Source of the DNA: Alphaproteobacteria bacterium
GTDB lineage: Bacteria > Pseudomonadota > Alphaproteobacteria > UBA7985
Assembly (NCBI GenBank): GCA_965661545.1
Contig: CBFIEF010000001.1
Span: 27,250 to 91,249, forward strand
DNA length: 64,000 bases
Direction of reading: 5' to 3'
This document shows positions 9,289-47,495 of the stretch, piece by piece (the first letter of the stretch is position 1; the number at the start of each line of letters is the position of its first letter). A program made the position numbers and the translations under genes. The notes beneath the pieces are model-generated. The model was not told the DNA's origin. It ran no database searches and saw only the letters and a list, made by a program, of their open reading frames with translations.

Positions 9289-9915
9289 CCAAGTCCCCCA
9301 ACGTAACTCTGTTTTTTGGTTCGCAGGGAAAGTGCCGCAGCAGCAGGGCCTGAGGGTAGTGTTTCTTCGGGTTCGTTTTTACAAAATGCGTTCCCACCGA
9401 AATCTTTGTCTGAGTAAGAAGTTAATCTATCACAAATTAGATATTATGCGTGCTGTTGATCAAAATGAACCCATCAAGAGTTTCTGTTTTATCATTTGAG
9501 AGAGGTCGAAATCACCAAAAATCGCATTTTGTAAGGCCGATTCTCTGCGTGATTCGATAATATTTTGGTGTTTTGAGAAGAGTTGGGCGTTCTGTTGCTA
9601 GGTGCCCAAGACCCCACCTACACATGCTAATGCGCAGGGATTTAGTTTCACGAACTCAGCTGCTTACGCAGCAAGAGCAACTCGTGGAGCAACATAGTTG
9701 TTTGCAACTGTGTTTAAATGACCCGGTTACGCCGGAATCATCACGGGCAAAACAAACAGCTTTCAATGCACGTCGATCCTATTTCGCCCCCAGCAAACAA
9801 CCAACTCGATCAGAATTGGCTCTTTGGTGGAGGCGCCGGGTACCGCCCCCGGGTCCGCAACATCTATTACCTGCTTGGTTTATCGCCATAGAGCGAGGCT
9901 CATCAGGGAATATAA

Positions 9916-10021
9916 GCGTTTTCACGCGCTATGCAATTGGCTACTGATACCGGGCTATGAGTGATTAGGCGTTTTCATAACCCTGGGAATTGGCTACGGC
10001 TTCGGCATTATGAGTGATAAA
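9916..10021 (+). repeat. Two tandem copies of a 53-bp modular repeat (9916-9968 and 9969-10021) that span the thyX start codon
   Basis: Both copies share three blocks in register with an exact 53-bp period: GCGTTTTCA, AATTGGCTAC and TATGAGTGAT. The two 10-11 nt spacers between the blocks are unrelated. Copy 1 carries the mini-ORF ATG AGT GAT TAG (9957-9968). Confidence 0.85.
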
Positions 10022-16868: not shown

Positions 16869-16968
16869 GGCTGTTGACGCCTAAATTTGTCTCTGCTTAG
16901 CCTATGCTTGAAAACGCGGGATTCTTTTTCCGGTTCCGACAAACTTATTGAGACATCAGGTTTTAATC

Positions 16969-19336: not shown

Positions 19337-20479
<1,143 letters not shown>

Positions 20480-20504
20480 GCCTCGACGCAAATGCATTGA
20501 AAAA

Positions 20505-20531
20505 GGCGATCCGCTCCGGGTCGCCTTTTTC
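20505..20531 (+). terminator. Intrinsic terminator after ilvC
   Basis: GGCGA-TCCGCTCCGGG-TCGCC followed by TTTTTC. Confidence 0.6.
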
Positions 20532-20541
20532 TTATGCGGGG

Positions 20542-20672
20542 ATGGGATTGCCAATCATCAAAACTCATGTTTTGATAAATCCCATGATTTCTAGAGCGGC
20601 CCTTACTGTCCTGCTTCTACCCAGCCCCTGACGTCTCAGCCGGGCTGCAAACCGGCATGCGATCAGGGGCTT
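20542..20672 (+). promoter_or_regulatory. Candidate leuA leader-peptide attenuator. The leader ORF is 20542 (or 20584) to 20631, followed by nested RNA stems.
   Basis: The peptide reads MGLPIIKTHVLINPMISRAALTVLLLPSP, or MISRAALTVLLLPSP from the second ATG. It contains three consecutive Leu codons (CTG CTT CTA). The stop codon lies inside the 9-bp stem AGCCCCTGA (20623-31) / TCAGGGGCT (20663-71). That stem encloses the hairpin GCCGG..CCGGC (20639-56), which overlaps the alternative pairing CAGCCC/GGGCTG. Confidence 0.4.
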
Positions 20673-20780
20673 GAAATATCTTCCTTCAAAATGCGAAAAC
20701 ACGGCGCGAGATGCGCAGCCCTTTGATCACCATAACAGGGGTGAGGGCGCGATAGGATACCGAGATCAGGACTGAAATTC

Positions 20781-22358
20781 ATGAGCATGCAGAAAACTGA
20801 CGACAACCGGGTCAAGATTTTTGACACCACCCTCCGCGACGGTGAGCAGTCACCCGGCTTTTCGATGAACCATGATGAAAAGCTGCGGATGGCGGGAATG
20901 CTGGAAGAGCTGGGCGTCGATATCATCGAAGCGGGCTTCCCGATCGCGTCACAGGGTGATTTTGAGTCCGTGCGCGCTATTGCGAAACAAGCATCCAAAG
21001 ACGTTGTGATCGCTGGCCTTTGCCGCGCTTCGACCAAGGACATTGATCGGGCGTGGGAAGCGCTGCAGTACGCGCCGAACGCCCGAATTCACACCTTCAT
21101 CTCCACCTCTCCGGTGCATATGAAATACAAGCTGCGGATGGAGCCCGAAGCGGTTTTGGAGGCAATCCACAATTCCGTATCCCACGCCGCGACGATGACC
21201 AGCGACGTTGAATGGTCACCCGAAGACGGGACACGGACCGAGCCTGATTTCCTCGTCAAATCGATCACGACCGCGGTGAAGGCTGGTGCAACGACGATCA
21301 ACGTGCCGGACACGGTTGGCTACTTGGTTGCTGATGAGTACGCCGAGCTGATCACCATGTTGCTCAACTCGGTTCCGGGCTTGGACAAGTGCACGATTTC
21401 CACCCACTGCCACAACGACCTGGGCGTTGCGGTCGCAAACTCTCTGGGTGGCGTTGCGTCCGGCGCGCGTCAGATTGAGTGCACCATCAACGGCATCGGC
21501 GAGCGGGCGGGTAACGCTTCGCTGGAAGAGGTCGCAATGGCCCTGCAGGTTCGCGGCGACCGCTTGCCATACTGGACCAACATCGACAGCACCAAGCTGC
21601 TGCGCGCCTCACAGATGCTCCAGTCTATCACCGGCTTCTCGGTTCAACCGAACAAGGCCATCGTCGGCGCGAACGCGTTTGCGCATGAATCGGGCATCCA
21701 CCAGGACGGCATGCTGAAGAATGCGCAGACCTATGAAATCATGACGCCAGAGAGCGTGGGTTGGACCAAAACCAACCTCGTGCTGGGCAAGCACTCAGGC
21801 CGCGCAGCCTTTCGTGACAAGCTGGTTCAGCTGGGTTTCGAAGATATTGGCGAGAATGCTTTCCAAGACGCATTCGTGCGCTTCAAGGATCTTGCCGATC
21901 ACAAGAAAGAAGTGGCTGACGAAGACATCGTTGCGTTGGTGGACGACAGCGCCAGCGATCAAGCAGCGGCTTTCGTTCTGGACGATCTGAAGATCCACTC
22001 CATCGTGCACGGCGTTGCGCGGGTTGATGTGACGGTCAGTGTCGAGGGCGCTGCGCAGACGGTGACCACTGAAGGCAACGGCGCGGTTGATGCGATCTTC
22101 AAGGGCATCAAGGATGTGACCGGCTTGGACGATCAGAAGCTGGATCTGTACCAAGTTCATGCGGTAACAGGCGGCACAGACGCGCAGGCTAAAGTTACGG
22201 TCCGGCTGAGCCAGGAGGGCCGAACGGTTTCTGGCACCGGCGCTGACTACGATACTTTGTTCGCTTCTGCGCGCGCCTACATCCATGCGTTGAACAAGCT
22301 GCAGGTTTCTGAAAAGCGGGTTCACGCGCACCGTGGTGGCGACGGCGAAGCGGCCTAA
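20781..22358 (+). CDS. leuA: 2-Isopropylmalate synthase (long form)
   Basis: FDTTLRDGEQSPG...HCHNDLG, plus the C-terminal regulatory domain. Confidence 0.9.
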   Translation: MSMQKTDDNRVKIFDTTLRDGEQSPGFSMNHDEKLRMAGMLEELGVDIIEAGFPIASQGDFESVRAIAKQASKDVVIAGLCRASTKDIDRAWEALQYAPNARIHTFISTSPVHMKYKLRMEPEAVLEAIHNSVSHAATMTSDVEWSPEDGTRTEPDFLVKSITTAVKAGATTINVPDTVGYLVADEYAELITMLLNSVPGLDKCTISTHCHNDLGVAVANSLGGVASGARQIECTINGIGERAGNASLEEVAMALQVRGDRLPYWTNIDSTKLLRASQMLQSITGFSVQPNKAIVGANAFAHESGIHQDGMLKNAQTYEIMTPESVGWTKTNLVLGKHSGRAAFRDKLVQLGFEDIGENAFQDAFVRFKDLADHKKEVADEDIVALVDDSASDQAAAFVLDDLKIHSIVHGVARVDVTVSVEGAAQTVTTEGNGAVDAIFKGIKDVTGLDDQKLDLYQVHAVTGGTDAQAKVTVRLSQEGRTVSGTGADYDTLFASARAYIHALNKLQVSEKRVHAHRGGDGEAA

Positions 22359-47417: not shown

Positions 47418-47495
47418 GGCGATTGTAGCTCAGTTGGTTAGAGCACCGGTTTGTGGTACCGGGGGTCGTGGGTTCGAACCCCATCAGTCGCCCCA
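47418..47495 (+). tRNA. tRNA-His (anticodon GTG) with a genomically encoded G-1 and an encoded CCA
   Basis: Manual fold: acceptor GCGATTG/CAGTCGC, D-arm GCTC..GAGC, anticodon stem CCGGT/ACCGG with the loop TTGTGGT, T-arm GTGGG-TTCGAAC-CCCAT, discriminator C, then CCA. An extra G at 47418 pairs with C73. Confidence 0.85.

Follow-up and report, generated by a model that had tools for sequence, protein, structure and literature searches.

A putative leucine-sensing leader upstream of leuA, conserved in Alphaproteobacteria and possibly acting on translation

The 64,000-nt stretch of alphaproteobacterial DNA analysed here (hereafter the window) carries, in this order, miaA, ilvI, ilvH, ilvC and leuA, as identified with Pfam, and the gap of 300 nt between the last two raises the question of what part it plays in the control of leuA, the gene for 2-isopropylmalate synthase. 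An initial annotation, made from the letters of the window, had proposed that this gap holds a leader-peptide attenuator: a short open reading frame (ORF) ending in rare leucine codons, with its stop codon inside a 9-bp stem that encloses a smaller hairpin. The ORF, the leucine codons, the stem and the inner hairpin are all present where they had been placed. We conclude with high confidence, from comparison of sequences, that the gap holds a conserved leucine-sensing leader for leuA. That the output of this leader is translational control of leuA we regard as evenly balanced; as an explanation of the whole we lean, by a little, towards translational attenuation by a leucine-sensing leader that belongs to a class-wide family.

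Conservation of the leader family

The comparison drew on 80 alphaproteobacterial loci among the matches listed, whose LeuA proteins are 58-65% identical to that of the window, and on a wider set of 88 alphaproteobacterial loci (LeuA 58-72% identical); two error-prone or duplicated-looking assemblies, L083 and L084, were not relied on. When the 450 nt before leuA were scanned mechanically, most of the 80 loci proved to have a small ORF that ends in a leucine run followed by x-[R/C/S/G]-P-stop. Endings such as GLLLLSRP-stop, TLLLLIRP-stop and LLLICP-stop illustrate the pattern, and the form LLLxxP-stop recurs across the Alphaproteobacteria. At the nucleotide level the module reads (CUN)n-CUU-ANN-NGC-CCC-UGA, of which CCCCUGA pairs with a UCAGGGG that lies 40-50 nt further on, the two enclosing an inner hairpin that varies. 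Conservation of a leucine-run ORF upstream of leuA was the check that the initial annotation had itself suggested, and the ORF is indeed conserved, both in two close relatives described below (L081 and L082) and as part of the module, which lies directly upstream of leuA in about 70 of the relatives' 88 loci. The window departs from the family in having CUA-CCC in place of CUU-ANN.

The hairpin that contains the stop codon, which we call P1, is conserved as a structure. Across 59 relatives 99.2% of the cells of its 8-bp outer stem are paired; 22 of these cells are compensatory, a total that none of 500 shuffles attained, and in slid controls pairing drops to 26-66%. Compensatory changes in the outer stem accompany changes of the stop codon (UAA/UUA, UGG/CCA, UAG/CUG). 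These 59 loci had been selected for pairing, so the stem was retested on loci selected by a LeuLeu..Pro-stop upstream ORF only, and a perfect 7-nt 3' arm was then found in 44 of 48, against 1.0 expected.

From 59 distant leuA leaders of Alphaproteobacteria, with the window left out, we built a covariance model. In the 64 kb of the window it has a sole plus-strand match, which covers 20601-20675 (29.8 bits, E 9.5e-6); its other match there is weaker and falls on the opposite strand, in the same palindromic stem (17.2 bits, E 0.011). Over all the loci the model returned 70 plus-strand matches, 70/70 of them just upstream of leuA, and it missed the Pelagibacterales and three others. The score of the window is among the lowest of the member scores, because of which we regard the window as a diverged member of the family. 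Metagenome contigs were also scanned, with a 16-nt motif that occurred in 120 contigs: the motif without P1 gave scattered chance matches, and where the motif was accompanied by P1 and by enough following sequence, leuA lay downstream in 52 of the 53 assessable cases. Since the gene on the upstream side varies (ilvC in the window, a polyprenyl synthase in L085-L089, others elsewhere), the element belongs to leuA rather than to its other neighbour. Taken as a leucine leader-peptide regulatory element for leuA, which is what the initial annotation had called it, the locus thus finds support in this conservation, in the near-constant presence of leuA downstream and in an enrichment of rare codons to which we return below.

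The family occurs in most alphaproteobacterial orders, including Hyphomicrobiales, Acetobacteraceae, Hyphomonadaceae, Sphingomonadales and marine groups. The element was not found in the Pelagibacterales loci L038, L040, L042, L058, L062, L067, L070-L072 and L077-L079, and these streamlined genomes have apparently lost leader regulation; several of these loci have ilvC some 85-110 nt before leuA. Rfam 15 yielded no relevant family, whether in a gathering search of the whole window, in a permissive search of 20400-20900 or in a search of 15 member loci; Leu_leader (RF00512), for instance, matched nothing in the window region even at E up to 10 and nothing in those 15 loci. Literature searches returned no description of an alphaproteobacterial leuA leader, and an earlier prediction (e.g., Vitreschak et al. 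2004, FEMS Microbiol Lett 234:357) may nevertheless exist.

Several members have peculiarities of their own. L087 (LeuA about 71% identical) has, at 2374-2442, lost the leucine run, its ORF ending in VALARFFGLSCP and a stop, and has retained P1, with UUUUUCCUUU directly after it; this leader may be a derived variant, terminator-type or constitutive. L084 has two identical leader copies (2009-2084 and 2346-2421, 48 bits each) and a called LeuA of 665 aa in which the HMGL domain is repeated, so that the doubling reflects a duplication in tandem or else an artefact of assembly. In leaders of the Pseudolabrys/Bradyrhizobium type (L054, L065, L068, L073, L041 and L044; around 2840-2990) the hexamer CUGGGC occurs three times, upstream of the leucine run and on both inner strands of P1, and a conserved ACCC block precedes a second hairpin, P2; the repeats and the block together suggest further alternative pairings or a pseudoknot.

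The leader open reading frame and hairpin P1

The leader ORF of the window encodes MISRAALTVLLLPSP in 15 codons and a stop (20584..20631, plus strand; TGA at 20629-31), has no Shine-Dalgarno (SD) sequence upstream, and ends 150 nt before the leuA start. Its tail reads CTG CTT CTA CCC AGC CCC TGA. The run of three leucine codons in it (20611..20619, plus strand: CTG 20611-13, CTT 20614-16, CTA 20617-19) is the presumed stalling site and also a candidate partner of the leuA initiation region; a fourth leucine codon, CTT, lies at 20602-04. CTT and CTA make up 8.9% and 2.7% of the leucine codons in the window's own genes, which bears out their earlier description as rare, and three of the four leucine codons of the leader are of this type. 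The bias is a property of the family: of the leucine codons in the leaders 48% are CUU and 8% CUA, whereas the leuA genes that follow these leaders have 7% and 1%, so that rare leucine codons are enriched about 7-fold.

Two start codons had been considered in the initial annotation, at 20542 and at 20584, and the second is the one that is conserved. Two metagenome contigs, L081 and L082, whose LeuA proteins are respectively 96% and 91% identical to that of the window, were aligned with it, and ATG 20584, the length of 15 codons and the frame are all kept in both (L081, MNSRTALIVLLLPSP; L082, MKTSMVLSALLLLRP). The longer ORF from ATG 20542, which would read MGLPIIKTHVLINPMISRAALTVLLLPSP, was rejected; L082 has an insertion of about 30 nt and a change of frame there. 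Within subfamilies the peptide frame survives in-frame changes of length, as in a type of 34-38 residues (MSTRQIICAIERTA...LLLLIRP) and a type of 12-18 residues (MRKNLLL...GP), and this argues that the leader ORF is translated.

The leader is set apart from ilvC, whose KARI-encoding frame (Pfam) ends at 20479, by an intrinsic terminator with a GC-rich hairpin and a T-run (20499..20531, plus strand); at a dG of -24.2 kcal/mol and a z of -5.4, with 0 of 200 shuffles folding as well, it is strong. Downstream of it lies a putative leader promoter (20548..20576, plus strand), composed of a -35-like TTGCCA at 20548-53, a 17-nt spacer and a weak -10-like TTTGAT at 20571-76 that ends 7 nt before ATG 20584. 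A sigma-70 consensus scan did not detect this putative promoter, and its -10 element is poor. TTGCCA and its distance of 30 nt to ATG 20584 are conserved in L081 and L082, and in all 18 of the 18 family members that have at least five of six matches to TTGACA the hexamer stands 29-30 nt from an in-frame ATG, never 27, 28, 31 or 32. In Sinorhizobium meliloti the trpL mRNA is leaderless and begins at the AUG of the leader ORF (PMC10117765). Because the geometry from promoter to AUG matches that of a transcript starting at the AUG, as in trpL, the leader ORF probably opens a leaderless transcript.

Hairpin P1 (20623..20671, plus strand) consists of an outer stem, AGCCCCUGA x UCAGGGGCU, middle pairs 20632-34 x 20659-61 and an inner stem of GCCGG (20639-43) with CCGGC (20652-56). 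The outer stem, AGCCCCTGA at 20623-31 with TCAGGGGCT at 20663-71, is a perfect 9 bp, and the stop codon UGA (20629-31) sits within its 5' arm, just as had been described. P1 is the same in the window, L081 and L082 except at loop positions. RNAfold, which the initial annotation had proposed as a check, gives P1 as the dominant local structure, with -25.7 kcal/mol for P1 alone and a median of -27 kcal/mol in the family; judged against shuffles, single-sequence folding of the window leader is not significant (z -1.8 and -0.7). An alternative pairing of CAGCCC (20622-27) with GGGCUG (20642-47), spanning 20622..20647 on the plus strand, overlaps the inner stem and so is mutually exclusive with P1, again in agreement with the earlier description. 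L082 preserves this alternative helix as CCGCCC x GGGCGG (A20623 to C and U20646 to G, an A-U pair becoming C-G), and this single compensatory event is modest evidence for it. As to the proposal that a ribosome stalled on the leucine codons hides the 5' arm, footprint geometry suggests that most of the arm would be hidden when CUA 20617-19 occupies the A site, and that with CUG 20611-13 there the ribosome would barely reach the arm; full occlusion would require a stall at the last leucine codon.

RNA folding also points, weakly, to P2 in the window (GGCGCG-AGAUG-CGC-A-GCC, 20701..20718, plus strand). This candidate hairpin is kept in L081 with a C to U change (C-G to U-G) and in L082 with a different loop, and a GC-rich hairpin occupies an analogous position in many relatives.

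Action on leuA and the alternatives

The gene presumably regulated, leuA (20781..22358, plus strand), is identified by its HMGL-like, HCS_D2 and LeuA_dimer domains and by homologues. Its translation initiation region (20767..20792, plus strand) comprises the SD sequence CAGGAC at 20767-72, ATG 20781 and the first codons to 20792. Upstream of leuA there are two SD-like motifs, UAGGA at 20753-20757 besides CAGGAC, and a second in-frame ATG follows at 20787 (MSMQ...). The minimum free energy (MFE) structure of the window pairs UAGGA (20753-20757) with the start of the leader ORF (UUCUA, 20589-93).

An observation that bears on the output of the leader is a complementarity between the leucine tract and the leuA ribosome-binding site (RBS). 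A full-length alignment of leaders (MAFFT with RNAalifold) recovers P1 alone, spacer lengths being too variable, and for this reason the long-range helix was tested by permutation. Pairing the leucine tract with the leuA RBS of its own locus gains an average of 2 kcal/mol over pairing it with the RBS of another locus (z -6.0, 0 of 20000 permutations), and the signal is gone when the RBS is reversed (z -1.3), which excludes base composition as its cause. A sliding scan locates the signal in the 24 nt immediately 5' of P1 (z -4.4 and -6.65) and finds none in the flanks, and its peak (z -6.65) falls exactly on the leucine-codon tract. An independent set of 52 metagenome leaders repeats the result (z -3.1, p 0.0012; control z +0.8). 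Partition-function folding of the family gives 5.3 pairs between tract and RBS against 3.6 expected (p 3.5e-6), and when the tract is masked as it would be by a stalled ribosome, accessibility of the SD in the family rises from 0.39 to 0.52 (p 2e-5).

Examples of such pairings are UCCUUCUC x GAGAAGGA, CCUGCUG x CAGCAGG, CUUCUG x CAGAGG and, in the window, GUCCUG x CAGGAC. The candidates in the window are GUCCUG (20608-13) with the SD and CUGU/UGCUU (20606-16) with GAGCA/GCAG (20783-92). The second of these is also proposed by an RNAalifold consensus of the window, L081 and L082, together with a pairing of UCCU (20682-85), in a pyrimidine tract at 20680..20688 on the plus strand (CUUCCUUCA; CCUCCUCC in L082), with AGGA of the SD (20768-71); the columns of these pairings are invariant across the three sequences and so show no covariation, which leaves them as predictions. 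The initiation region of L082 is predicted to pair with leader codons 4-12 and is opened by masking from 0.37 to 0.66; L081 shows a moderate opening.

We propose that these elements work together as follows. A promoter just 3' of the ilvC terminator would give an mRNA that starts at or beside the AUG of the 15-codon ORF, the end of which offers rare leucine codons and then Pro-Ser-Pro-UGA, the stop being buried in the 5' arm of the very stable P1. In the free leader the pyrimidine-rich leucine tract would pair with the SD and start region of leuA and hide it, with P1 and P2 as inserted hairpins that draw the two strands together. When charged tRNA-Leu is scarce the ribosome would stall at the CUU/CUA codons, and thus parked it would occupy the tract and free the leuA RBS; when leucine is plentiful it would unwind P1, terminate and depart. 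Reduced translation of leuA might in turn bring a secondary, Rho-dependent polarity. Stalling on the leucine codons is suggested by the codons themselves and their conservation, and translational attenuation is favoured because the tract co-varies with the leuA RBS and because terminators are absent; for this particular window a translational output is what the model of the family would predict.

Several points weigh against this explanation, some of them in the window itself. The tract there can pair over 6 bp with the SD (GUCCUG x CAGGAC) or over 9 bp with the first codons, its own pair has an average rank of 24/60, and its tract-RBS pairs are no better than those of shuffles (2.4 against 2.9 expected). 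Masking of the leucine codons in silico, a part of the folding check that had been proposed, leaves the RBS of the window unopened, and the MFE structure pairs 20589-20613 with 20736-20760, upstream of the SD. Some nine members of the family are without tract-RBS pairing. The model also leaves unexplained why CCCC/GGGG of P1, the CCC proline codon (67/68) and the preceding NGC codon are near-invariant. A ribosome barrier might be set 5 nt beyond the final leucine codon, release at Pro-UGA might be slow, the 3' arm might imitate an SD sequence and serve as a decoy, or a factor might bind. Moreover, the leucine tract would also be covered by a ribosome that pauses at Pro-UGA. Lastly, leucine-codon mutants of a Streptomyces leader are, to go by their citation in PMC1262725, at odds with simple attenuation.

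Among the alternatives, a Rho-dependent attenuation of the tna type survives best, and we consider it improbable. According to it the C-rich, G-poor leader would be a Rho loading site that a leucine-stalled ribosome hides, and after release at Pro-UGA Rho would stop transcription before or within leuA. The absence of intrinsic terminators from the leaders fits this idea, as do the C-richness of the tract at 20596-20631 (16 C and 6 G in 36 nt) and the constant ending of the leader in proline and a stop, usually UGA, like that of TnaC; the authors of PMC1262725, too, proposed Rho for leaders without a terminator. The C-rich tract and the region that follows are, however, locked in stable structure (recall the family median for P1) and thus a poor substrate for Rho. 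In the window the region after the stop lies inside a hairpin of -26 kcal/mol, which argues against an accessible rut site, and the co-variation of the leucine tract with the leuA RBS is not something that Rho-dependent attenuation predicts.

It is quite unlikely that the leader is instead a structured RNA bound by a protein or a small RNA, with the ORF incidental or minor, as has been proposed and argued for actinobacterial LEU elements (PMC1262725). Both arms of P1 (CCCC/GGGG) and the GC before them are nearly invariant beyond what a plain stem needs, which suggests sequence-specific recognition. The frame, the leucine run, the rare codons and the Pro-stop ending are nonetheless kept despite divergent N-termini and in-frame changes of length, the promoter spacing suits a leaderless AUG, and no conserved unpaired nucleotides resembling a ligand pocket were seen in P1.

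Classical transcription attenuation, in which P1 (or P2) would terminate transcription intrinsically unless a stalled ribosome sat on its 5' arm, has in our view a slim chance, just below that of the bound RNA. P1 is strong and GC-rich with the stop codon in its 5' arm, U-runs follow P1 in a few AT-richer relatives, to which intrinsic termination may apply (L087, with its UUUUUCCUUU, L089 and L066), and in one subgroup of about nine loci the 3' arm of P1 has a second CCCCUGA-like partner downstream (z -1.7 to -3.1). Against this, no 8-nt stretch of the P1 tail in the window, UGAAAUAUCUUC, contains more than 4 U, so that the weak U-tract noted in the initial annotation is not terminator-like; a consensus scan of 20535-20780 found no terminator-like site between leader and leuA, and a hairpin with a U-run anywhere is found in just 4 of 68 leaders. 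P1 and P2 were accordingly rejected as intrinsic terminators for the window and for 64 of the 68 members. For the classical 2:3 antiterminator, formed by the 3' arm of P1 and downstream sequence, the family as a whole gives no significant signal (mean z -0.25, p 0.23); the candidate in the window, GAUCAGGGG x CCCUUUGAUC (20719-28), reaches a z of -1.0. The failure to match Rfam Leu_leader points the same way. Because 4 of 68 leaders are terminator-like and the window has no such feature, classical termination attenuation is unlikely. Of the leu-operon architecture envisaged at the outset, the leucine-codon ORF with its stop in a stem therefore stands, and the E. coli design, with a terminator and a significant competing antiterminator, was not found; the choice of output, which had been left open between termination and something else, narrows in that intrinsic termination is most likely not the output step.

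A chance ORF beside an unrelated intergenic palindrome, with which the insignificant single-sequence folding (z -1.8, -0.7) would agree, is refuted for practical purposes by the covariance-model match, the roughly 70 loci always before leuA and the unbiased stem test.

Returning to translational attenuation, a broader formulation may be offered tentatively, and with less than even confidence: most Alphaproteobacteria would use a terminator-less translational attenuator in which the rare leucine codons are themselves the anti-Shine-Dalgarno strand, the ORF is often leaderless, and a near-invariant CUU-ANN-NGC-CCC-UGA module in the CCCCUGA/UCAGGGG hairpin adds a sequence-specific step.

Elsewhere in the window, a permuted, two-piece alphaproteobacterial transfer-messenger RNA (tmRNA) gene at 9581-9940 on the minus strand (236.8 bits) is ordinary and shows the source to be an alphaproteobacterium; a tRNA gene at 47419-47492 on the plus strand is ordinary as well. 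The 100-nt gap between miaA and ilvI contains a small ORF, MLENAGFFFRFRQTY and a stop (16904-16951, plus strand), with four phenylalanines in five positions and TTGACG upstream at 16874-79. An ilvIH leader rich in Ile/Val/Leu, of the type predicted for Alphaproteobacteria, is not visible in this gap.

Comparison with known systems

A leucine leader before leuA is unsurprising as a kind of element; the family itself is of interest as widespread in Alphaproteobacteria, missing from Rfam 15, terminator-less and probably acting on translation. If the broader formulation given above is true, the leaders would be a widespread, undescribed family of cis-regulatory RNA, and the design put forward for the LEU element would have a second, independent instance. 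Confirmation would yield a clean model, simple to mutate, of translational attenuation that senses an amino acid; it would improve the annotation of hundreds of genomes (with both a small ORF and a cis-regulatory RNA) and give a handle for engineering the leucine and branched-chain pathways of production strains among the Alphaproteobacteria. A specific puzzle posed by the family is the invariant Pro-UGA within a conserved stem.

Leader-peptide attenuation is a textbook subject, and nearly all worked examples end in an intrinsic terminator. The enterobacterial leuL (Rfam RF00512) resembles the present leader in having a short upstream ORF with consecutive rare leucine codons before leuA, where stalling reports the supply of charged tRNA-Leu. 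It differs in that leuL combines an intrinsic terminator with a competing antiterminator, whereas the alphaproteobacterial leader is without a U-tract terminator, a significant antiterminator or an Rfam match. The leader peptide of E. coli tnaC ends in proline and then UGA, and its regulation does without an intrinsic terminator; the leuA leader has the same ending and probably likewise acts without one. tnaC, however, senses free tryptophan through the nascent peptide and blocks Rho, whereas the leuA leader is strongly structured after the stop. Translational attenuation of the ermC/cat type offers the principle that a ribosome stalled in a leader disrupts a structure masking a downstream RBS. 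Stalling there is due to a drug and the nascent peptide, whereas the leuA leader would stall for want of charged tRNA, and its regulatory codons would be the anti-SD strand.

Within the Alphaproteobacteria, S. meliloti trpL/rnTrpL is a leaderless leader-peptide mRNA with the same geometry from promoter to AUG as we propose for the leuA leader (PMC10117765); the Trp codons, the canonical terminator and the trans-acting small RNA are features of trpL that set it apart. The proposed design is that of the actinobacterial LEU element, in which, according to a proposal of 2005, a compact structure is closed at its base by a run of leucine codons paired with the SD of leuA (Seliverstov et al., PMC1262725). 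Common to both are a leader ORF with a leucine run before leuA and no obvious terminator; a base stem of leucine run and SD enclosing a structure, proposed for the LEU element, is supported for the alphaproteobacterial family and weak in the window. The two belong to different phyla, and the interior of the LEU element is a predicted pseudoknot, in contrast to the one long hairpin P1, with the stop in its 5' arm, and the small second hairpin found here. In this comparison, one of descriptions rather than of sequences, the conserved signature ..CUU-ANN-NGC-CCC-UGA / UCAGGGG is a further difference, not being described for the LEU element.

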